From contig CAXHJY010000437.1 in the NCBI GenBank assembly GCA_964016885.1, positions 186,001-250,000 of the forward strand: a DNA stretch of 64,000 bases. The letters are read 5' to 3'. The notes beneath the pieces were generated by a model. It was not told the origin of the DNA and did no database searches. It saw only the letters and a list, made by a program, of their open reading frames with translations. This document shows positions 5,266 to 64,000 of the stretch, piece after piece. The DNA comes from Eledone cirrhosa. Taxonomy: Eukaryota. A program made the position numbers and the translations under genes. Position 1 is the first letter of the stretch. Every line of letters begins with the position of its first letter.

Positions 5266-8200
5266 TGCTACAATAGTGCTACAAATTTTTCTGGGTGGGA
5301 AATGACGATGGGATGGGTGGTGTAGGTATACTATTAGCTGACAAGTGGGTAGATAAAGTAATCTCAGTGTACAGGGTAAATGCAAGAATCATTAAACTCA
5401 GACTAGTCCTGAATAAGACAATTACCACAATAATATCAGCTTACGCACCCCAATCGGGGCTGCCAGACGAACTTAAGGATAGGTTTTACGAGTCCCTAAT
5501 ACACACTACTGCTCTAACAGACGACAAGGACTTCCTAATCATTGCAGGAGATTTTAACGGACACGTAGGTAAACACTGCGACGGCTTCAATAGAGTACAT
5601 GGAGGCCATGGAGTTGGCACAAGGAATGAGGAAGGATTCAGACTTCTAGAATTCTGCGACGCCAATGACATGTCGATATGTAACACAAACTTTAAAAAAC
5701 CCGACAACCACCTGATCACCTATAGATCAGGGGAGCACTCTAGTCAGTTAGATTTTATCCTCATCAGAGGACGTGACAGATGGACGGTCGTAAACACAAA
5801 AGCCTTCCCTAGTGAGGAATGTACATCCCAACATAGCTTAGTTGTCAGCGACCTCACGGTCAGAACTAGACGAGCCCTGAAACAGAGGCCAACCTGGAGA
5901 AGAAAGATCTGGAAGCTGAAAGTCCCCTCAACCAGTAACAGATTTAAAGATATTTTACTCAACGCCTACGACAGTAAAGAAGAACAGATAGAGACATTTA
6001 ACGTAGAAGAGAACTGGGAGTTCCTAAAAAATAACTTACTAGAGGCGACGGATGAGGTTTGTGGCTGGAGTAAGACCTCAAGCAGGAGGAGAGTGACTTG
6101 GTGGTGGAACAATAAGGTAGATGAAGCAGTCAAGGCCAAGAGACAGGCATGGAAAGAATGGAAGAACGGGGGGAGCAGGGTACATTACATAGAGACCAAG
6201 AGGGAAGCTAGGCGACAAGTATACTTAGCTAGGAGGGAAGCAGAGGATAGAAAATTCAAGCATGTTTTACAACGTGAGGACCAGAAACAGGAGGTATTCA
6301 AGATTGCGAGGCAGTGTGTCAGAGATAGTTGTGATGTCATTGGAGAGAAGTGTATCCGGAATGATAAAGGTGAGCTTGCCCTCACAAGTGCTGAGAAGAA
6401 AGATGCATGGAAGAGTCATTATGATAGATTACTAAATGAGGAGAATGCATGGGAAGAAGAGACCCTACCCCACGTAGACCCTATAGAGGGACCAGCAGTA
6501 CAAGTCAGCGGCAGCGTAGTAAGTAAGGCAATCAGAGATATGAAGATAGGGAAGGCAACCGGTCCATCGGGTATAGCTGCCGAGATGCTGAAGGCATCTG
6601 GGTCTGTAGGTCACACTATAACCACACGTATCGTTAACCAGGTAATACTAGAGGGGGCCATACCAAAAGATTGGTGCAGTAGCATCATTGTCAACTGCTA
6701 CAAAGGTAAAGGCGATGCACTAGATAGAGGAAACTATAGAGGTATAAAGTTGATGGACCAGGTCATGAAAGTAACAGAAAGAGTTATAGCACAGCTGATT
6801 AGGGACCGGGTGAATATAGACGAGATGCAATTTGGGTTTGTTCCAGGGAAAGGCACCACTGATGCGCTCTTCCTTGTGAGGCAATTACAGGAAAAGTACC
6901 TAGCTAAAAGTAAGCCACTCTACTTGGCATTTGTCGACCTTGAGAAAGCCTTTGACAGAGTTCCACGTGCAGTAATCTGGTGGGCTCTTAGAAAACTAGG
7001 AGTAGATGAATGGCTTGTGAAAGCGGTACAAGCCATGTATAGGGGAGCAGTCAGCAAAGTTAGGATTGGCAATGAGTATAGCGAGGAATTTAGCGTACAG
7101 GTTGGGGTCCACCAGGGCTCTGTTCTTAGCCCTCTCCTGTTCATCATAGTCCTGCAGGCAATAACGGAGGAGTTTAAGACCGGATGCCCATGGGAACTCC
7201 TGTATGCTGATGACCTCGCACTCATAGCTGAATCTATGGTAGAACTAGAGAATAAATTCCAAACCTGGAAGCAGGGACTAGAGAGAAAGGGCCTCAAAGT
7301 CAACATGACAAAGACTAAGGTCCTTATAAGTAGACGAGAAAACAGAACCCAGATCCCCTCAGGGAAATGGCCTTGCTCAGTATGTAGGAAAGGTGTAGGT
7401 AGGAACTCCATTCTTTGCCCCAAATGCAAACAATGGGTACACAAGAGATGTAGCGGGATCTCAGGAAGCTTAATTAAGAATGTAGGATTCACATGCAGCA
7501 GCTGTGCTGAAACAGCAAGCAAACAGCCACAGGAAACAAGTACCACCAATCTCTGGGAGGGCCCTGTAGAAACAGTAGACAGCTTCTGCTACCTAGGTGA
7601 CCGAATTAGCAACGGAGGTGGGTGCTCAGAAAGTACAATAACTAGGGTAAGAACGGGATGGAAGAAGTTTAGGGAACTACTACCACTGCTAGCTGCAAAA
7701 GGCTTCTCCCTCAGAATGAAAGGCAGACTGTATGATGCGTGTATCCGAACAGCGATGTTGCATGGTAGTGAGACCTGGGCGCTGAAGGTGGAAGACTTAC
7801 GTAGATTAGAGAGAAACGAAGCCTGCATGCTCCGATGGATGTGTAACAGTAATATACGTGAACGACAAAGCATAAATGAATTGAGAGAGAGACTGAGCAT
7901 AAGAGGAATCAAATGCTGTGTGCAGGAGAGGCGGTTACGCTGGTATGGACATGTGATGCGTATGAAGGATGACAGCTGCATAAAAAGGTGCAGAGCACTA
8001 GAAGTTGATGGAAACCGCGGTGTGGGGAGACCCAAGATGACTTGGGATGAGGTGATAAAAGCCGACCTTACCCAACTACACCTCTCAAAGTCAATGACAC
8101 ACGACCGTGACTTCTGGCGTCACGCAGTAATACAGGGTACCCGACCTCCCATGGGTACATGCTGAAGCATATAAACAATATGCCCCCCCCCCCCCACCGC

Positions 8201-22679: not shown

Positions 22680-22920
22680 CATTTTTGTATTTGTTTTGCA
22701 AAATGTTTTTATCTGAAAATGTGTGTTGAAACAGATATTGTTATGCTTTGGTAGGGTCATGCTGCCAATAAACACACACGCACTGTTGGGTTTCATTTCA
22801 ATTTATTATTATAATTTCCCTATCAGTTTAATTACTGGATGGTTGTTTAGTTGTTGATTGTCAAAACTCTTTCATCACATATTCTGTGGCCTCCTCGATG
22901 ATTACTTTTGTTGTTACTTT
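22680..22920 (-). mobile_element. Old solo pseudo-LTR fragment of the PLE family at 29.5-30.9 kb
   Basis: Diverged match to 63635-63900 (ATCTGAAA..TGTGTTGAAAC.GATATTGTTAT.CTTTGG.AGGGTCATG); degraded hammerhead at 22860-22903. Confidence 0.75.
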
Positions 22921-23307
22921 TTGTCAACCAAGATAGTGAGACACAAAGTTACAACAGAACAGAAAGTATTTTCTTTGGATTGTAAATATATTTAGATGTA
23001 GTTGTATTTATAAGCAATATATATTATACAGATAGAATAAGTGATTGCGGAGGTCTGATAGTGTAGAATATAAAACCGTGTTATCTAGCATAGTCACTAC
23101 CCTGCTGGCTTGCTAGCAATGAACATATTGGCTGTGGCTACAGCAAGCATCTGATGCCAACTAACAAACAACTGCTCAGTTCTTTCATTTATAGTCAAAG
23201 GGGTCCCTGGTCACTTGCCAGAAGTGACCAAATGCCTATGATACAAAAATACAGCATATTTTCAGAAAACAACAAAAATCAATGCATGATTTTACTTGCT
23301 CTCTCTC

Positions 23308-29504: not shown

Positions 29505-30431
29505 ATGTATATATATCTATATATCCATTATGCCAAACCCATGACTTCCAAACATCTGATCCACCGAAACTCGGCCGTTTCGGACCATACCAAAATCAAC
29601 ATACTGATTGCGGATTTGGTACGGGTGATGAGAAATGTGTCCCGCATGTGCAACCCCGAAGAACTAGAGAGACACATACAACACTTCATCCACCGTATGC
29701 AGTTCTCTAGCTACAATCAGAGAGATAAAATCACAGTGTATAGAGGAGCCAGAACCAAATGGGAAAAAATGGTAAATAATGACATAAATGGTACCTGCCC
29801 CTTGTATAGGAGCAAATTTTGGAATAGAATAGAAAGAACTAGGAACAAGGCTAATAGAATAAACTCATGGTATGATAGCAATAAATACCAGAGTGTAATG
29901 TTCATCAATACAACCCCTAGAGGTGAATTAGCTTACAAATTTAGAAGGGCCCTAGATAAACATAAACTCAATATTAAGATAGTAGAAAGACCAGGTACCT
30001 CCGTAAAAACACTTATTAGCAAGACATACCCTTTTCAAAGACCCTCATGTATGGATAAGAAATGTATAACCTGTAAAATAAGCCCCCATATTAACTGTAA
30101 AACTAGAAATGTAGTGTATAGCATAAGATGTACTGAAGGACAATGTAGAGACAAAAATATAGTGTACATAGGTGAGACAGCTCGTAGTGTAGGGGAACGG
30201 ATAAATGAACACTGGCGAGACCTTCAAGATAGTAAAGAATCATCTGTACTCTACCAACATGCTAAAATAGAACACAAGGGTAAATTAGAGAACATAGAAA
30301 TAAAAATAGAATCCACACACAGAAAAGACGCAATGTTTAGACAAATCACAGAGGCAATAAACATAAAAGAATTACAACCAAAATTAAATAGAAAATATGA
30401 GTGGAACAGCAACATCACAACTTACAATTAA
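29505..30431 (+). CDS. PLE protein C-terminal part: RT thumb, Cys-rich linker and GIY-YIG endonuclease
   Basis: CxxxxCxxC linker; NVVYSIRC..VYIGETARSVGERINEH..QH...H..RQITEAINI...PKLN; the start lies in a TA repeat, so the true 5' end is truncated. Confidence 0.88.
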   Translation: MYIYLYIHYAKPMTSKHLIHRNSAVSDHTKINILIADLVRVMRNVSRMCNPEELERHIQHFIHRMQFSSYNQRDKITVYRGARTKWEKMVNNDINGTCPLYRSKFWNRIERTRNKANRINSWYDSNKYQSVMFINTTPRGELAYKFRRALDKHKLNIKIVERPGTSVKTLISKTYPFQRPSCMDKKCITCKISPHINCKTRNVVYSIRCTEGQCRDKNIVYIGETARSVGERINEHWRDLQDSKESSVLYQHAKIEHKGKLENIEIKIESTHRKDAMFRQITEAINIKELQPKLNRKYEWNSNITTYN

Positions 30432-30872
30432 GGACAAAATGAAAACACACATAGAACAAACAACCAACCAGTAACATGTAAATAAACAAATAAATAAATG
30501 AATATAAACACACACAGACACCTGGATGTGGCGCATGCGCAGACTGAGCACACAACACACACACAGAAACAAAATGGCGTAGGACAGAACAAAGGAGAGG
30601 CACAAAAAACAAAGAAAAGAATCACCAGTCACTGAAGAGGTCACAGAGTGTGTGACGAAAGAACTATGACAATATATAAACAACTATCTGGTTGTGGAAC
30701 AAACCAACCAACCAGAAATTTATAAATTTATAAATTTATTATAATAAATTGAAGTGAAAGCAACTGGTGCGTGTGTTTCTTATTGGCAACATGACCCTCC
30801 CAAAGTATAACAATATCGGTTTCAACACACGATTTCAGATAAAGAATCTTGCTAAACAAATTCAGAAACGAA
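29527..30872 (+). mobile_element. Penelope-like element, 5'-truncated (RT thumb + GIY-YIG ORF + pseudo-LTR)
   Basis: ORF 29505-30431; 3' pLTR with a hammerhead; related pLTRs at 22.7, 62.0 and 63.7 kb. Confidence 0.9.
30628..30670 (+). ncRNA. Minimal hammerhead ribozyme in the PLE pseudo-LTR
   Basis: GTCA-CTGAAGA-G-GTCACA/TGTGAC-GAAA-GAAC-TA-TGAC; stem I GTCA/TGAC. Confidence 0.7.
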
Positions 30873-31720: not shown

Positions 31721-34700
31721 ACATCATCATCATCATCATCCTCGTTTAACGTCCATGTTCCACGCTTGCATGGGTTTGGACAGGAGTTTTCCCACTTGAG
31801 GCAAGAGTGATTGTCTTGCTCGCATAGGACTGTCTGGCGGGTTTTCTACAGCTGGATGCCCTTGCTAACACCAACCACATTTACAGTGTGGGTCTGGGAG
31901 GTTTTTACCGTGTTGCCTACACGGCCACATTACAGCGTGGACTGTGCGTTTTTTTGTCGTGACACCTACACGCTCTCATTTGTTTCGGCCTGGATGTTGT
32001 GGCACCAACATAACTTTACATTGAAGGGGGCTGTGTGGATGGGGTGGGGGGTGGGACGGGGGTGTATTTTGTTAGAGATGCCTACTGACTGTAGTAGGTT
32101 TTACTTTGTATTTAGGTAAGGCGGGTCTTCTCTATTACTGAGTACCGCCAAAGGTCTCGGTCCAGTGACATTGTCTTGGAGAGGTGTAAGTGTGTGAGGT
32201 CGGAATTTATCAGGTCCTCCCAGGTTTTTCTGGGTCTGCCTACTCCGTGGCTACCGTCTATCTTTATTGCCCTGCACATTTTTATACAGCTGTCGTCTTT
32301 CATGCGCATCACGTGACCATACCAACGTAGCCTTCTCTCGAGTAAACAACATCTGATCCCTCTTACTTCTAATTTTTCCCTTAGTTCGTTTATACTTTGC
32401 CGTTCACGTATGTTACGTATGCAAAGTATGTGTGCATAAAAGATATATTACTATTACACAGTATATAAAGTATATTACTATTACACATCCCGCGGAGCAT
32501 GCAAGCTTCGTTCCTCTCTAGTCTGCGTATATCCTCTACACACAATGCCCAGGTCTCACTGCCATGCAACATTGCTGTTCGTATGCAGGCATCATACAAC
32601 CTGCCTTTCATTTTTAGGGAGAACCCTTTAGCGGCTAATAGTGCTATAAGCTCTCTGAACTTTCTCCATCCAATTCTGACTCTAGCTACTGTACTTTCAG
32701 AGCACCCTCCCCCACTGCTGATTTTGTCACCCAGGTAACGGAAGCTGTCTACTATTTCTATAGAACCCTCTGCGCAGTTGAAATAGCTAGTATTTTGTGG
32801 CCACTTGCTGCTACTTATTGCACCAGAGCACTGGCCACATGTAAAATCTATGTTCTTAGTTAGTTTACCTGTGATCCCACTACATCTTTTATGCACCCAT
32901 ACTTTGCATTTGGGACACAAAATGGAGTTTCTACCTACGCCTTTCCTACACACTGAGCATGGCCATTTCCCGGAAGGGACCGCCGCCTTATTTTCTTTAC
33001 TACAAACTAGAACTTTAGTCTTAGCCAGGTTAATTTTAAGGCCTTTTGATTCTAGGCCGTGCTTCCATGTTTGGAATTTCTTCTCTAGCTCAGCCATTGA
33101 TTCAGCTATGAGTGTTAGGTCATCTGCGTATAGGAGTTCCCATGGGCAGCCGGTCTTGAACTCCTCTGTTATAGCCTGAAGGGCAATAATAAATAGTAGG
33201 GGGTTAAGAACAGAGCCCTGATGAACACCAAATTTTACAGTAAACTCTTCACTATATTCGTTGTTAATTCTAACCTTGCTGACTGTTTCTTTATACATGG
33301 CTTGTATAGCTCTCACAAGCCATTCGTCAACACCTAGTTTTCTAACAGCCCACCAGATATAGAACGGGGGATTCTGTCGAAGGCATTCTCCAGGTCAACA
33401 AAAGCTAAGTATAGTGGTTTACTTTTAGCTAGGTACTTCTCCTGTAGTTGTCGTACAATGAAAAGAGCGTCTGTGGTACTTTTGCCTGACACAAACCCGA
33501 ACTGCATTTCATCTAGATCAATTCTCTCTCTGATTAGTTGCGCTATTACTTTTTCCGTTACCTTCATGACCTGGTCGATTAATTTAATGCCTCTATAGTT
33601 ACTCCTATCTAGGGCGTCTCCTTTACCCTTGTAACAGTTAATGATGATGCTGCTACGCCAGTCCTTCGGAACAACCCCATTCTGTACGACTTGGTTAACT
33701 ATCCGGGTGACCATGGTGTGTCTCACCGTACCAGATGCCTTCAGCATCTCGGCAACTATTTCCGAAGGCCCAGCCGCCTTACACGTCTCCATATCCTTGA
33801 TTGCCTTACTTATTATACTACCCTCGGCTAACACTGCTGGTCCCTCTATTGGATCGATCTGGGGGAGACTGTCTTTCTCCCATTTGTTCTCCTCATTTAG
33901 AAGCCTTTCGTAGTGACACTTCCAAGCTACCTTCTTATCAGTGTCGGTGATGGCAAGTATGCCATCATCGTTAAGTACACACTTCTCCCCGACAATATCA
34001 CGGTTTTCCTTGACACATTGCCTAGCAATCCTGAACACCTCACGTTTTTGGTCCTCCCGTTGTAGAACATGCTTGAACTTTCTTTCCTCTGCTTCCCTTC
34101 TTGCGAAGTACACTTGTCTCCTAGCTTCCCTCCTGGCCCCTTGATAGTCTTCTCTACTTCCCCCATCCCGCCATACTTTCCAAGCCTGCTTTTTGGCCTT
34201 GATTGACCCCTCCACCTTACTGTTCCACCACCATGTTACTCTCCTCCTGCCTACAAGCCTGCTCCAGCCACAGACTTCGTCTGCCGCCTTCAGCAGGTTT
34301 GCTTTCAGGAATTCCCACTGCTCCTCTATATTGTACGACTCTAATTGCTCTTCCTTACTGTCGAAAGCATCAAGTAGTATGCTTTTAAATTTATTTCTGG
34401 CTGTGGGGTCCTTTAGCTTCCATATTTTTCTCCTGAGGACAGTCCTCTTCTGTTGTCTAATGCGTCTCGTCCTGACTATTAGGTCGCTGATTATCAGTCT
34501 ATGTTGGGAGGTGCATTCTTCGTGGGGGAGGGATTTATAGTTTACAACAGACACTCTGTCACGTCTTCTGGTAAGGATATAATCTACCTGGCTTGTGTGT
34601 TCCCCCGATCTATAGGTGATCAGGTGATTGTCCCGTTTTTTGAAGTTAGTGTTACAGATAGTTAGGTTATTTGCGTCACAGAATTCCAGGATTCTGGAGC

Positions 34701-35250
34701 CTTCCTTATTTCTAGTACCAAACCCATAGCCTCCATGGATTTCGTCGTAGCCGTCACAATATTGTCCAACGTGACCATTTAGGTCGCCTGCAATAATTAT
34801 ATAGTCACTGTCGGTTATTTGGGAGGTAGTGAGCATCAGTGTCTCATAGAATCTGTCTTTTATAGTGCCGGGCAGTCCGGATTGGGGTGCGTACGCAGAT
34901 ATTACTGTCACCGTAGTTCTATTGAGGACAAGTCTTATTTTAATTATTCTGTCGTTCACTCTATTTACGTCTATTATCTTATCTGCCCACTTTTCTGCTA
35001 CCATGATTTCTACTCCACCCAGCCCATTGTCATTGCCCACCCAGAAAAGCTTATAGCATCGTTTTTTACCCACAATGAATCTAGGAGACCCACCCCTCCA
35101 CCTGGTCTCTTGAATACAACAAACATCGACCTCCTTACGTTCAAGCATTTCTACAACCTCGTTAGAGCGACCCTTTAAGGTGCCTACATTCATGGTATCA
35201 ACTCTGAAGTTTTGGATTGCGTTTGGAGGGTGGGAGCGGTGGGGAGGGGG
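31721..35250 (-). mobile_element. RTE-A near-full-length copy (complete APE + RT), disrupted by a frameshift (~33355) and an insertion (~32411-32470)
   Basis: ORF 33334-35370 (TMNVGTL, CCIQETRW, SAYAPQ, GDLNGHVG, VDYIL, SQHRL), ORFs 32390-33316 and 32112-32312; (CAT)n tail at 31721. Confidence 0.95.
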
Positions 35251-35907
35251 GGGGGTTATGTTAGCCATCCGCGGCCGAAACAAGGAGGAGTGCTCGCATT
35301 CTCGTCCAGATTTTTCTGGGCGTCCAGATTTTTCTCTCTTCAACTCTCCAGAATTCCGTAGTCCATCCATCCGTCATATCGAAAGGCAACTAGGTAAGCG
35401 ATAGTATAGGCCTCTGGCTTATGATTGGTCCACGTAATAATAATTGTGGTGCGTGGGGACGGGTGTTGAGTTGTTAGCGAGAAGGTTAGGTTTAAGTAAG
35501 ATCCTCGTATTTAACAAGCAATAACAAAAATACAAGATTTGTTTTGAAAAATACGACAAAAATACAGGAGGATTTGTTTTGGAAATGCGATAGAATAGCG
35601 AGTAGCGAGGCAAAGATTGGAATCGGGTAAGAGAAAATGCTATAGAATTGTCGGATGGGGTAGACTATGGAATTGAGTGGATTGTAGAAATGCAAGAAAA
35701 ATGTGTACATTACATTATACCGTGAAGGAAAGCAGCCATGAATTTGGCGAATGTGATTACTTGTGGGGTTTATCTTATATATATAGATAGAGAGAGAGAA
35801 GGGGGGGGGAGGTTTGGCCGCATGATGTAGAGTGGGGTGGCTGACCGCGAACTCTCATGATGTAGGGAAGGGGGAGGAGATATTAAGGAGCGGGAATTAA
35901 GATAGTT

Positions 35908-38667: not shown

Positions 38668-41090
38668 CATCATCATCATCATCATCATCAACGTTTAACG
38701 TCCGTGTTCCACGCTTGCATGGGTTTGGACGGGGGTAGTCCCACTTGAGGCAAGAGTGATTGTCTTGCTCGCATAGGACTGTCTGGCAGGTTTTCTACAG
38801 TTGGATGCCCTTCCTAACACCAACCACATTTACAGTGTGGGTCTGGGAGGTTTTTACCGTGTTGCCTACACGGCCACATTACAGCGTGGACTGTGTGTTT
38901 TTTTGTCGTGACACCTACACGATCTCATTTGTTTCGGCCTGGATGGCGCGGCACCAACATAACTTTACATAGAACGGGGTGCTGTGGATGGGGTGGGGGT
39001 GGCGGCGGGAGGGGTGTATTTTGTTAGAGATGCCTACTGGCAAGGCGGGTCTTCTCTGTTACTGAGTACCGCCAAAGGTCACGGTCCAGTGACATTGTCT
39101 TGGAAAGGTGTAAGTGTGTGAGGTCGGAGTTTATCAGCTCATCCCATGTTTTTCTAGGTCTGCCTATTCCGTGGCTACCGTCTATCTTTATTGCCCTGCA
39201 CTTTGTAATACAGCTATCGACTTTCATGCGCATCACGTGTCCATACCAACGCAGCCTTCTCTCGAGTAAACAACATCTGATCCCTCTTATCTCTAATTTT
39301 TTCCTTAGTTCGTTTATGCTTTGCCGTTCACGTATATTACTGTTACACATCCAGCGGAGCATGCAAGCTTCGTTCCTCTCTAGTCTGCGTATATCCTCTG
39401 CACACAATGCCCAGGTCTCACTACCATGCAACATTGCTGTTCGTATGCAGGCATCGTACAACCTGCCTTTCATTTTTAGGGAGAACCCTTTAGCAGCTAA
39501 TAGTGGTATAAGCTCTCTGAACTTTTTCCAACCAGTTCTGACTCTAGCTACAGTACTTTCAGAGCACCCTCCCCCACTGCTGATTTTATCGCCCAGGTAA
39601 CGGAAGCTGTCCACTATTTCTATAGAACCCTCTGCGCAATTGAAAGAGCTAGTATTTTGTGGGCACTTGCTGCTACTTATTGCACCAGAACACCGGCCAC
39701 ATGTAAAGTCTATGTTCTTAGTTAGCTTACCTGTGATCCCACTACATCTTTTATGCACCCATACTTTGCATTTAGGACATAAGATGGAGTTTCTACCTAC
39801 GCCTTTCCTACATACCGAGCACGACCATTTCCCAGAAGGGACCGCCGCCTTGTTTTCTTTCCTACAAACTAGAACTTTGGTCTTAGCCAGGTTAATTTTA
39901 AGTCCTTTTGACTCTAGGCCGTGCTTCCATGTTTGGAATTTCTTCTCTAGCTCGGCCATTGATTCCGCTATGAGTGTCAGGTCGTCTGCGTATAGGAGTT
40001 CCCATGGGCAGCCTGTCTTGAACTCCTCTGTTATAGCCTGAAGGGCAATAATAAATAGTAGGGGGCTGAGAACAGAGCCCTGATGGACGCCAACTTTTAC
40101 GCTAAACTCTTCACTATATTCGTTGTTAATTCTAACCTTGCTGACTGTTTCTTTATACATGGCTTGTATAGCCCTCACAAGCCATTCGTCAACGCCTAGT
40201 TTTCTAAGAGCCCACCAGATAATGGAGCGGGGGACTCTGTCGAAGGCTTTCTCCAGGTCGACAAAAGCTAAGTAGAGGGGTTTACCTTTAGCTAGGTACT
40301 TCTCCTGTAGTTGTCGTACTATGAAAAGAGCGTCTGTGGTGCTTTTGCCTGACACAAACCCGAACTGCATTTCATCTAGATCAATTCTCTCTCTGATTAG
40401 TTGCGCTATTACTTTTTCCGTGACCTTCATGACCTGGTCGATTAATTTAATGCCTCTATAGTTACTCCTATCTAGGGCGTCTCCTTTACCCTTATAACAG
40501 TTAACGATGATGCTGCTATGCCAGTCCTTCGGAACAACCCCATTCTGTACGACTTGGTTAACTATGCGGGTGACCATGGTGTGTCCCACCGTGCCAGATG
40601 CCTTCAGCATCTCAGCAACTATTTCCGAAGGCCCAGCCGCCTTACCAGTCTTCATATCCTTGATTGCCTTACTTATTATACTCCCCTCGACTAACACTGC
40701 TGGTCCCTCTATCGGGTCGATAAGGGGGAGACTGTCTTTCTCCCATTTATTCTCCTCATTTAGTAGCCTTTCATAGTGACACTTCCAAGCTACCTTCTTA
40801 TCAGTGTCGGTGATGGCAAGTATGCCATCATCGTTAAGTACACACTTCTCCCCGACAATATCACGGTTTTCCTTGACGCATTGCCTGGCAATCCTGAACA
40901 CCTCACGTTTTTGGTCATCGCGTTGTAGAACATGCTTGAACTTTCTTTCCTCAGCTTCCCTTCTTGCTAAGTACACTTCTCTCCTAGCTTCCCTCCTGGC
41001 CACTTGATAGTCTACTCTACTTCCCCCATCCCGCCATACTTTCCAAGCCTGCTTTTTGGCCTTAATTGACCCCTCCACCCTATTGTTCCC
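38667..41090 (-). mobile_element. RTE-A 5'-truncated copy with an uninterrupted 684-aa RT ORF (39024-41078)
   Basis: All RT motifs present; a small deletion at the stop gives read-through to RLASRHL; (CAT)n tail. Confidence 0.95.
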
Positions 41091-41305
41091 ATATATATAT
41101 GTATATGTATATATATGTATATATATGTATATGTATATATATGTATATATATGTATATGTATATATATATGTATGTATATATATATGTATATGTATGTAT
41201 ATATATATGTATATTAATTGACCCCTCCACCCTATTGTTCCCATATATATATGTATATGTATATATATGTATATATATGTATATGTATATATATGTATAT
41301 GTATA

Positions 41306-60625: not shown

Positions 60626-61909
60626 AAAAAGAACATGAAATCATAATTTAGCATTTCTCTACATTTGAAGCAGTCTGAATCCTTTTTCAAACAAAGTTAT
60701 ATGGAAGTCAGTTCTGCTAAACGTTTTAGCATTAATTTAATTTCTGTTGCATTTCTCAATAACATTTAAAAAGAGATAAAACTGGAAGGGGAGAGAAATG
60801 AAGAAAAATATCAAAATAGAAAAAATAAACATGATGAATTTTTACACCTTGATGTAGTTGGATTGAGACTAATGCAACACTTCCTATTGAACTATCAAGG
60901 TTTCGAAGGTATGTCCTGCTTAGCTGTTCCAGCTAGTAGAAATAGTAGTCAAATCACACTCCTAATAACACTCTACTATCCTGAAAAAGAAATAACTGCA
61001 TTGGATAATCTAGTTTTAAATAGATTGTCTGAATACTTAAAAAGGGTGAGATGGTCATAGCTGGAATGACTTTGATAATAATTTTGTTGTATCAGAGTTT
61101 ACCTTGGACTAAATAACAACAATATAATTAAACCAGTTAGGGAGCCATTCTGTGGTCACTAAATCAGCTGGCAAGAACAGACAATTCTTCCACAAATTCC
61201 ACCCTAAAAGACATGCTGAATAATCTAGTCCTAGATATATTAGGACAAAAAAGATGGTTTAGTCATAATTGGAACACATTTGAAGATAGGTCTACTTTAT
61301 CAGGACTGACCTAGGGTTGAACAAAAACAACAATATTCCTCTTGACTATCAGCTATAAACTTTCAATTTTAATTGTATATGTGGAATTAGATATGCTAGC
61401 TCAGCCCTTCATAGATTCTTTCCACTCACAAACATACGATACACCATTAAAAAAGAACAAGAATTTACAAGGAGTTTCATTATGAAATGCTGATGGCATA
61501 TATAATGAATATAAATGGCACCAACCATAGATCCAAACAGTGCCGAATTACATAAATAAGTAAATATGTAACTAAATATAGAAGTAAAAAATACAAAAAC
61601 AAAAATTCAGCTGCTTCTCCTCAAAGAAGTAAAATTTCTATCATAATCTATTTAGTTTCAATTGCAATGTTTTTTTTTTTAAATTGTATTCGTGAAATAT
61701 ATCTGTAGGCTACAAAATATCGACCCAGTGAATCTATTCAGAGTACTTGAAAATGAAATAGTTAATGTATGTATGTACATATGCATGTATACATACAGAC
61801 ACACACACGAGTGTGTATATATGTATGTACATATGCATGTATACGCACACACACACGAGTGTGTATATATGTATGTATGTAGATATGTTTTGTTTGTTTG
61901 TTTGTTTTT

Positions 61910-62210
61910 TTGTGCCTCTCCTTTGTTCTGTCCTACGCCATCTTGTTTGGTGTATGGCGTAGGACAGAACAAAGGAGAGGCACAAGGGGAGAACAAAGAA
62001 AATAGTCCCCAGTCATTGAAGAGGTCGCAGAGTGTGTGACGAAGGAGCTTTGACAATATATGAACAATCGTCTGGTTGTGGAACCAACCAACGAACCGGA
62101 AATTTGTAAATTCCTAAATTTATAGATTTGATTTGTGATAAATTGAAGTGAGAGTGGCTGGTACGTGTGTTTCTTGTTGGCAGCATGACCCTCCCAAAGC
62201 ATAACAATAT
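61910..62210 (+). mobile_element. PLE pseudo-LTR fragment with a 32-bp 5' inverted duplication and a mutated hammerhead (62012-62054)
   Basis: Matches ~30574-30816; arms 61910-61941 and 61954-61985. Confidence 0.85.
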
Positions 62211-62230
62211 GTATATATATATATATATAT

Positions 62231-63590
62231 TGCTAAGGCTTTTAATTCTGTGCCACACAAAATACTTATGGCAAAACTCTCTGCAATGGGTGTGAGGGAT
62301 GATCTTTTCGACTGGTTGAAATCCTTCATTCTCAGCCGAAAAGAAGTAGTCACGGTTCTAGGACAGCATTCTTCACCATATGAGATGTCATCTGGTGTAC
62401 CACAGGGATCTGTTCTTGGTCCCCTTTTGTTTGTGGCATATATTAATGACATAGATGCCAACTTACAGAATGCCACGGTACTGAAATATGCAGATGACAT
62501 CAAGCTGTACCTTGAAATCAAAAGGACTGATCCTGAAATCTACAACTCTTTCCTACAATCAGACCTGGACACAATGCAGCAATGGATCACAGACTGGCAA
62601 CTGAATCTGGCTGTGGGCAAGTGTACCACCATGTATTTTGGGAGGAAAAATCCAGCGTCCACATACTCCCTCCACAACACTGATATCAAGAAGTCCTCTT
62701 GTGAACATGACCTGGGCATTACTGTCAGCAGCGATTTGCGTTGGACAAAGCATGTCTCTAAGATTGTCAAGAAGGCCGAGGGTGTCTTGGCATCACTCAG
62801 CAAGACCTTTGTTAGCCGCTCTCCAGCCATCTATTTAAAACTGTTTACAGCTATGGTACGACCACACTTGGAATTCACATCATCAGTCTGGAACCTCTAT
62901 CTTGCTCAGAACATTGACCTCCTGGAAACTGTTCAGAGACGTGCAACCAAGCGCATATCCTCCATCAGACACCTACCATACTCTGAACGCCTTGCTTCCC
63001 TGGGCATGGATTCATTGAAGCTCCGACGTCTGGCAATGGACTTGGTAAATACCCACAAAGTTATTAACCATCTCGCCAATTGCAGCCTTGAGCACCTTTT
63101 TGATCTCCATGTGTCTAACACACGTGGACATGCCTACAAAATCAGAAAACAGTACAGCTCCCATGACTTTTGTAGACATTTTTTCACGCTCAGAGTTGCT
63201 GAAGCATGGAACAAACTGCCTGCGTCAGTTGTTAGCTGCCGAGACACTGCATCCTTTAAGACACTCATGCTTCCCGAAATACGCCAAAACTACACCTGAT
63301 GTACCCCTTCCATACACATGCACACATGTGTGTATCATGACTCGTGCACTGTTCATTTTCCTGATGTTTGTGCATTGTCCTATGTACTGTACATGCACTT
63401 TTTGATGAGTTCTGGTGCACCTGGGCACTGTACACAATATTTCATTATTATTATTATTATTATATCATGACTCATACACTGTTCATTTTCCTGACATTTG
63501 TACATTATTCTATGTACTATACATGCACCTTTGATGAGTTGTAGTGCACCTGAGCACTGTACACAATAATTTCATTATTATTATATTATA
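62231..63590 (+). mobile_element. CR1-like LINE, 5'-truncated, with a duplicated 3' end
   Basis: ORF 62250-63299: SGVPQGSVLGPLLF, YADDIKL, RPHLEF..VW, VQRRATK, TRGH; (ATT)n tails at ~63445 and ~63575. Confidence 0.92.
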
Positions 63591-63634
63591 TGTATGTATA
63601 TATATATTGTATATATATATGTATGTATATATAT

Positions 63635-64000
63635 CGTTTCTGAATTTGTTTAGCAAGATTCTTTATCTGAAATCGTGTGTTGAAACCGATATTGTTATAC
63701 TTTGGGAGGGTCATGTTGCCAATAAGAAACACACGCACCAGTTGCTTTCACTTCAATTTATTATATATTTATAAATTTACAAATTTATAAATTTATAAAT
63801 TTCTGGTTGGTTGGTTGGTTCCACAACCAGATAGTTGTTTATATATAGTCATAGTCCTTTCGTCACACACTCTGTGACCTCTTCAGTGACTGGGGATTCC
63901 TTTCTTTGTCTCCGTGCCTCTCCTTTGTTCTGTCCTACGCCATTTTGTTTCTGATTGCGGGTTTGGTGCGGGTGATGGGAGATGTGTCCCGCGTGTGCGG
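63635..64000. mobile_element. PLE copy: inverted pseudo-LTR (minus, 63635-63953, hammerhead 63848-63890) joined to plus-strand ORF sequence (63951-64000, continues beyond the window)
   Basis: Reverse complement of ~30564-30870, then a match to 29604-29653; CTG microhomology at the junction. Confidence 0.88.

Follow-up and report, generated by a model that had tools for sequence, protein, structure and literature searches.

Sense-strand A-to-G clusters in copies of a Penelope-like element point to reverse transcription of ADAR-edited hairpin RNA

Near the end of the window analysed here (the whole stretch of 64,000 nt, from a genome of 3.0 Gb) lies a pseudo-LTR (pLTR) of a Penelope-like element (PLE) that an initial annotation had described as carrying many A-to-G (A>G) changes, one of them in a hammerhead ribozyme core. 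The locus raises the question of whether these changes are subfamily variants or traces of an editing event, and, if editing took place, on which molecule and strand. The features concerned are the following.

29525..30872, plus strand: unedited copy of a sister subfamily, an ORF end followed by a pLTR with tail
61898..61948, minus strand: short pLTR arm, inverted and facing the edited copy head-to-head; its end is abrupt and unusual, fused to a (TTTG)n tract
61949..61953, no strand: junction of arm and sense copy; tried as a search pattern, it had one genome match, itself
61954..62210, plus strand: edited Penelope-like pLTR in sense orientation; it bears 14-17 private A>G and an A-run rich in G
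61984..61993, plus strand: A-run read as AAGGGGAGAA; A4-A7 in the family
62211..62231, no strand: (TA)n tract, the family's usual target, 3' of the 62 kb pLTR
62232..63580, plus strand: 5'-truncated LINE fragment with an RT frame, a tandem 3' repeat and an (ATT)n tail; unedited, an internal control
63634..63969, minus strand: inverted pLTR arm with a 60-nt tail (the "63.7 kb copy")
63951..64000, plus strand: beginning of a hyperedited PLE ORF body extending past the window (G000:C464:249950-251200; L071:952-2200)

The A>G cluster at 62 kb and its neighbourhood

Because the pLTR follows the ORF end in the copy at 29.5-30.9 kb, the plus strand is the sense strand. All the individual changes named in the initial annotation were present (GTCGC at 62027, GAAG at 62044, TTTGTA at 62106, TGAGAG at 62152, CTTGTT at 62176 and AAGGGGAGAA at 61984-61993), as was the single G>A, at 62163. 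Its caution that a few changes might be subfamily variants was also borne out: ATATGAAC, TCGTCT and ACCGG, among the differences from the 30.6 kb copy, are of this kind. Since that copy belongs to a sister subfamily, the reference was switched to whichever base prevailed in each alignment column among the 29 genomic copies closest to the 62 kb copy, a choice of comparators by likeness that biases against the result. Against this majority, 61954-62210 showed 23 substitutions (17 A>G, 1 T>C, 1 G>A, 2 C>T and 2 transversions), and besides these its A-run was 5 nt longer, with three further G. Each of the six non-A>G differences was common to 2-13 of the 29 relatives, and 9 of the 17 A>G occurred in none of them. 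The relatives themselves carried 0-3 A>G each, and the background rate of 29/2918 As predicts 0.99 A>G in the 62 kb copy (P(>=15) = 3e-13). A binomial test of 15 A>G against 1 T>C gave p = 0.006, and under a stricter two-subfamily profile 14 A>G were still private, the G at 62032 being common in the sister subfamily. The strand-specific A>G excess thus persisted in the multiple alignment after subfamily control. Judging from the letters of the A-run at 61984-61993, where the alignment is ambiguous, this is likely an A10 run bearing five edits.

None of the 19 As that follow a G had changed in the 62 kb copy, compared with 17 of the 81 other As (Fisher p = 0.019); a preference for G on the 3' side was absent from this copy (1/15). 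Upstream-G depletion appears in passages of PMC4365171 and PMC5625713, the former giving it as the standard ADAR mark. TpA-directed hypermutation on two strands was considered for this copy and rejected, as 5 of the 17 changes come after T and there is just 1 T>C. The adjacent LINE at 62232-63580 showed 3 A>G among 18 differences in 1349 columns, and the copy at 29525-30872 showed 1 A>G in 1346 columns.

Beyond the LINE, the 63.7 kb copy had been treated as a stand-alone edited pLTR. It belongs instead, as a mirror arm, to a larger hyperedited element crossing the window end: the arm at 63634-63969 corresponds in sequence to its own body's 3' pLTR, whose few A>G it repeats. In the first 550 nt of this neighbour's ORF, 119 of 217 As had changed, and the body held 125 A>G against 5 other private changes in 1225 columns. 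Sorted by 5' neighbour, the changed As numbered 42/60 after T, 51/79 after A, 13/32 after C and 13/46 after G, the last compared with 106/171 for all others (p = 4e-5). The hyperediting of this ORF is far stronger than that of the 62 kb copy and has a sharp end, and its duplex partner is absent from the locus; arm and body join at 63951-63969 with a 3-nt microhomology. The earlier view that the 62 kb copy had an origin separate from that of the 63.7 kb copy was upheld by the difference in subfamily and in changed sites and by the unedited LINE between them. Part of its reasoning did not stand: the A7 of the 62 kb arm (61898-61948) is indeed retained on the minus strand, but it reads as U7 on the edited strand, beyond the reach of an adenosine deaminase, and so says nothing on independence. 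The same arm can hardly show edits at all, because its plus strand has just 2 As.

A single long edited transcript over 61.9-65.2 kb was rejected as stated, because the LINE carries no editing and plus-strand A>G are absent from the 63.7 kb arm. Two separately derived hyperedited elements thus lie 1.4 kb apart, both edited on the plus strand. This spacing may be due to chance at a frequency of about 3%; bait-derived frequencies leave it unexplained. The idea that C464 is a hotspot of editing was likewise rejected, since 0 of 10 further family segments were flagged in 196 kb of the contig (265-282 kb left out).

Neither the junction pattern, which matched only itself, nor an allele-combination pattern (0 genome matches) revealed a source locus of the 62 kb copy, and an allelic counterpart of its left flank was not found elsewhere in the genome. 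Among contigs of four runs (at most 2 samples, from 1 study), no piece spanned the edited haplotype at 61895-62300. Elsewhere in the window, 22690-22924 on the minus strand is an older pLTR relative, 82% identical and without substitution bias, and 61220-61330 weakly resembles a tandem repeat of 129 nt that is found mainly on C25 and C1666. Young LINE copies with long open frames for endonuclease and RT occupy 5277-8165, 33334-35373 and 39024-41213, where they sit among very long (TA)-type microsatellites.

Recurrence in the family, hairpin stems and mirror arms

The ORF end of the 29.5-30.9 kb copy, read by eye, holds a CX4CX2C linker and a GIY-YIG-like motif; the string VVYSIRC..YIGETAR we take to be this GIY-YIG-like endonuclease motif. 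Pfam models run on a relative's frame returned RVT_1 under the cut-off (E = 3.6e-4) and 0 hits for GIY-YIG, and none of 46 homologues was informatively named. The ORF is followed by the pLTR, which is often accompanied by an inverted copy truncated at its 5' end, and the family uses TA-tract targets and has two 3' end points (reference positions 1750 and 1810), the inner of which is the 3' terminus of the 61954-62210 pLTR. The segment CMDKKCITC fits the CX2-5CxxC RT-EN linker given in a passage of PMC8557442. On these sequence features the element is likely an EN+ PLE of the Neptune clade.

This family has at least 23,007 genome matches to one 31-nt pLTR motif, with arms counted separately. 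A two-site A>G bait recovered 10 places, 7 of which (the 62 kb copy included) had 7-27 private pLTR A>G and the rest 2-5, whereas the matched G>A bait recovered 8 places with 2-5 G>A each and no cluster. Another A>G bait performed less well (at least 11 changes in 3 of its 11 matches, two of these three already known), and all five matches of an antisense bait were inverted arms directly 5' of a sense copy, with 6-18 changes each. Independently of baits, 74 stretches were taken around the first-listed matches on C1, a positional and not a random sample, and 2 of them were hyperedited (95% interval 0.3-9.4%), both with sense A>G; T>C, G>A or C>T hypermutation was seen in none of the 74. As these two cases were edited upstream of the bait sites, the bait counts are lower bounds. 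An abutting head-to-head arm was present in 32 of the 74 stretches. The A>G pattern recurs on the large contigs C1, C2, C3, C5, C15, C18 and C19. Among the cases examined, sense T>C clusters were confined to arms upstream of a sense copy, and in every solo or mirror case the change was A>G in the pLTR sense, which points to a sense RNA template for at least these copies. APOBEC-type sense G>A clusters were also looked for and rejected, with none in the 62 kb copy, the G>A-bait matches or the 74 sampled stretches.

Where edited copies retain a hairpin shape, the changes follow its stems. Five such loci were compared (L062, L065, L067, L068 and L089), leaving aside the bait sites and the loci L085 and L086. 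Of the 466 As that lie in paired stems of the edited strand 96 had changed, compared with 3 of the 399 outside the stems (p = 2e-24). L068 (G000:C19:14489370-14490142) has the same junction as the unedited L059 (G000:C2:106390772). The two differ by 41 substitutions in 777 columns, all 41 being A>G, although at one of these L068 has the family base, so that this difference is probably a later change in L059. The L068 edits lie in both arms on one physical strand, with 0 in the 370-nt loop. L068 also carries the 5' flank of L059 (406 nt, 99.75%), and its 3' flank differs, which is what a read-through transcript would leave if copied from the pLTR 3' end. The pair has the form of source and daughter, with a 5' transduction of ~2.4 kb of flanking repeats and microsatellites. 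L062 (C3:222207078) and L067 (C18:38625540) share one composite structure with different edits; their shared non-PLE flanks on both sides mark a larger mobilised unit. One locus counts against a hairpin origin, namely L086, whose arm has 11 changes and whose sense partner has 0, which is unexplained.

Sequence context in these other copies was less uniform. Unlike the 62 kb copy, they showed a preference for G on the 3' side (p = 0.005). The ten other edited loci pooled showed a weak 5' G depletion (18/194 vs 128/898, p = 0.038), against which L215 had 5 of 15 As after G changed, and in background copies the test for a 5' G effect gave p = 0.24, in a count that excludes L007, an older diverged segment.

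A second class of loci carries mirror arms, in which the changes of the body are repeated. At L215, 27 of the 28-29 changes within the overlap are common to arm and body; the figures are 32 of 39-40 at L166 and 5 of 5 at L064, so that each arm likely derives from the same edited molecule (RNA or cDNA) as its body, or both inherited the edits of a parent. The mirror arms of L215:2666-3403, L166:6324-8588, L064 and L071 carry a 60-nt tail that is absent from their bodies, and the L215 arm also has two G missing from its body. Tailed mirror arms fit two priming events on one RNA at two start points.

Origin of the changes

Taken together, these results very probably reflect ADAR hyperediting of a sense-strand hairpin RNA that was then reverse-transcribed into the germline. 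Roughly four in ten elements have a head-to-head inverted arm, so that read-through transcripts would fold into long hairpins. ADAR would edit the stems of these hairpins, and the element's RT would copy inosine as G into germline DNA, beginning at the sense pLTR 3' end on a nicked (TA)n target. Two routes to the inverted arm could then be distinguished: RT may continue into the RNA's own arm, leaving both arms edited on one physical strand, or a new arm may be built from the same edited molecule, giving a mirror arm. A candidate enzyme source is encoded in the genome, which has 12 matches above cut-off to PF02137 (adenosine deaminase); the deaminase domain on C6 (G000:C6:13644405-13646174) has intact catalytic motifs HAE, PCG and SCSDK. 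At least three or four adenosine-deaminase-domain loci can be told apart (C6, C1:146.45 Mb, C25:17.35 Mb and C1:320.73 Mb), of which C6 had its motifs checked.

For the 62 kb copy itself, the duplex partner was likely a longer arm that 5' truncation reduced to 51 nt. The surviving arm at 61898-61948 and the start of the pLTR at 61954-62000 are predicted to fold into a hairpin (-71.6 kcal/mol, z -12.6). The edits span the whole pLTR and lie mostly beyond this 51-nt arm, and for this reason the partner has to be inferred; the first 30 nt of the pLTR, paired with the arm, have no edit, which counts against a hairpin origin here. The arm breaks off away from any natural end point, and the A-run is not mirrored in it, a combination compatible with 5' truncation of a hairpin transcript.

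A more far-reaching claim, towards which we lean only slightly, is that ADAR has been a germline mutagen of the family, with hundreds of insertions bearing single-molecule editing barcodes. Such barcodes would show sense-RNA copying and two routes to inverted ends, one in which the same RNA molecule, or its cDNA, was copied twice, and one in which a ready-made hairpin transcript was retrotransposed with its upstream flank.

The alternative that survives best, though we hold it improbable, is adenine deamination acting on DNA, with ADAR or another deaminase working either on the DNA strand of RNA:cDNA hybrids or on the copy once integrated, perhaps with an antisense RNA template. It would likewise produce strand-specific A>G, and ADAR acts on the DNA of hybrids. 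Antisense templates have moreover been proposed for PLEs in part of PMC3846280. A hybrid would span the whole copied length, yet the edits end at the stem boundaries (3/399 outside); in addition, the edits of L068 lie on one physical strand in both arms, and the LINE separating the two edited elements was left unedited.

An artefact of assembly or sequencing was suggested by the setting, as C464 is an unplaced 282-kb contig, its flank is without an allelic copy, and it holds two edited elements 1.4 kb apart. We regard this as very improbable: the adjacent LINE and 10 of 10 further family segments on C464 are without the pattern, which is also found on large contigs, and errors would follow neither stems nor 5' context and would not be mirrored in arms. 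The artefact described in a passage of PMC2873906 concerned G-to-A in Sanger traces.

Least probable are two explanations that place the changes outside editing altogether. A diverged subfamily, GC-biased conversion or ordinary decay might account for the six differences and few G alleles common to relatives, in a pLTR that is 40% A, but is largely refuted: the nearest copy is just 90% identical (2341 candidates, 40 scored), relatives stand 2-13 changes from the majority, T>C, A>C and T>G are not in excess, and few site sets are identical among edited copies. RT infidelity under an imbalanced nucleotide pool would be expected to give template-strand clusters but predicts neither stem confinement nor the upstream order T>A>C>G, and it would need the A:C mispair, the less favoured type, to yield A>G.

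The hammerhead motif and comparison with known systems

The annotated hit on the ribozyme concerns the following motif.

62012..62054, plus strand: minimal type I hammerhead-like motif, by its sequence, fold, family tally and a layout as in passages of PMC4209133
62012-15/62051-54, plus strand: stem I
62016-22, plus strand: core, with C3>U at 62016, a family variant
62023, plus strand: unpaired G
62024-28/62036-40, plus strand: stem II
62041-44, plus strand: GAAA box, with A15.1>G at 62044
after 62050, plus strand: predicted cut

The family pLTR has the parts of a minimal type I hammerhead (CUGANGA, GAAA, a UH site and stems I and II), and both core boxes were intact in 52 of 70 unedited family segments, with U3 in 8 of 70. 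An Rfam scan of the motif gave 0 hits at the gathering threshold, and fold z-scores were not significant. In the 62 kb copy the core is not intact, owing to C3>U and A15.1>G. A15.1 is a conserved hammerhead core base. The combination of U3 and G15.1 makes self-cleavage unlikely, and by its sequence the hammerhead of this copy likely would not cleave. The A15.1>G change that had been annotated is therefore real, but its reading as a meaningful event fails, as it shows no enrichment in matched contexts, C3>U was already there, and the copy is a solo fragment. The rate of change at A15.1 was 6/9 in the edited copies, where other AAG sites stood at 10/30 (p = 0.12), and some core A had changed in 8 of the 9 that span the core. 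Targeting of the hammerhead was considered and rejected: a post hoc count of A14 and A15.1 (11/18) against As after A (77/287) gave p = 0.005, an enrichment lost against matched triplets (p = 0.12 and 0.15). The change is thus likely an incidental by-product of editing. Ribozyme mutants of an anole PLE were without effect on in vitro insertion, according to a passage of PMC11167929. The ribozyme contributes little here, and it is the family-wide evidence that carries the finding.

RNA editing is usually not heritable; here it has apparently been written into the genome, with a measurable share of a 23,000-match family scarred (8 or so by tight baits, 2/74 by position). If the ADAR origin is correct, genomes would bear witness to germline mutation of retrotransposons by ADAR; the more far-reaching claim above would in addition document ADAR-driven inactivation of a non-viral retroelement. 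The edits also form a strand- and molecule-specific label that bears on the sense or antisense template of PLEs and on the formation of their inverted ends, two points named as open in passages of PMC3846280 and PMC8557442, and the more far-reaching claim, if true, would settle both in vivo. The mutational role of ADAR in retrotransposon (Alu) evolution was called undetermined in part of a 2016 review (PMC4982230). No report of genomic PLE or LINE copies with fixed ADAR edits was found in a literature search whose coverage lay outside subscription papers and supplements.

Compared with known systems, the element resembles the EN+ PLEs described in passages of PMC8557442, PMC11167929 and PMC3846280 in its pLTR, inverted 5'-truncated copy, one-end tail, (TA)n targets, linker and minimal hammerhead. 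It differs from them in a tail of about 60 nt, where theirs is given as 30-40, in its editing scars, which those passages do not mention, and in its sense-strand polarity, opposite to the antisense template proposed in that part of PMC3846280. The hammerhead shares with the minimal type I PLE motifs in passages of PMC4209133 the CUGANGA and GAAA boxes, a short helix I, an unpaired base 5' of stem II and a 2-bp helix III; unlike these, the 62 kb copy has U3 without A8 covariation and G at 15.1. Massive hyperediting of Penelope RNA in a lizard appears in a passage of PMC5625713. Our copies share with the hyperedited repeat RNAs in passages of that paper and PMC4365171 the A>G clusters, the depletion of upstream G and the long inverted-repeat duplexes; unlike the RNA-versus-DNA mismatches reported there, the changes here stand in the genomic DNA.

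Retroelement DNA with APOBEC scars is described in passages of PMC2873906, and these scars too are single-type hypermutation clusters fixed in retroelements and found by comparing copies. Those scars are G>A and arise by cytidine deamination of cDNA, whereas ours are A>G, on the RNA strand and tied to RNA structure. APOBEC editing of retroelement DNA was reportedly treated by Carmi in 2011 and by Knisbacher and Levanon in 2016. An A>G hypermutated avian RAV-1 LTR is said to have been described by Felder in 1994 and by Hajjar and Linial in 1995, and A-to-G hypermutated retroviral proviruses reportedly by Kim and co-workers in 1996. As in those proviruses, changes of the ADAR type made in RNA would here have been fixed in DNA by reverse transcription. 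Unlike the proviruses, which were exogenous and found in cells, the copies described here belong to a non-viral retrotransposon in an animal genome, with a source-daughter pair and edits confined to stems.
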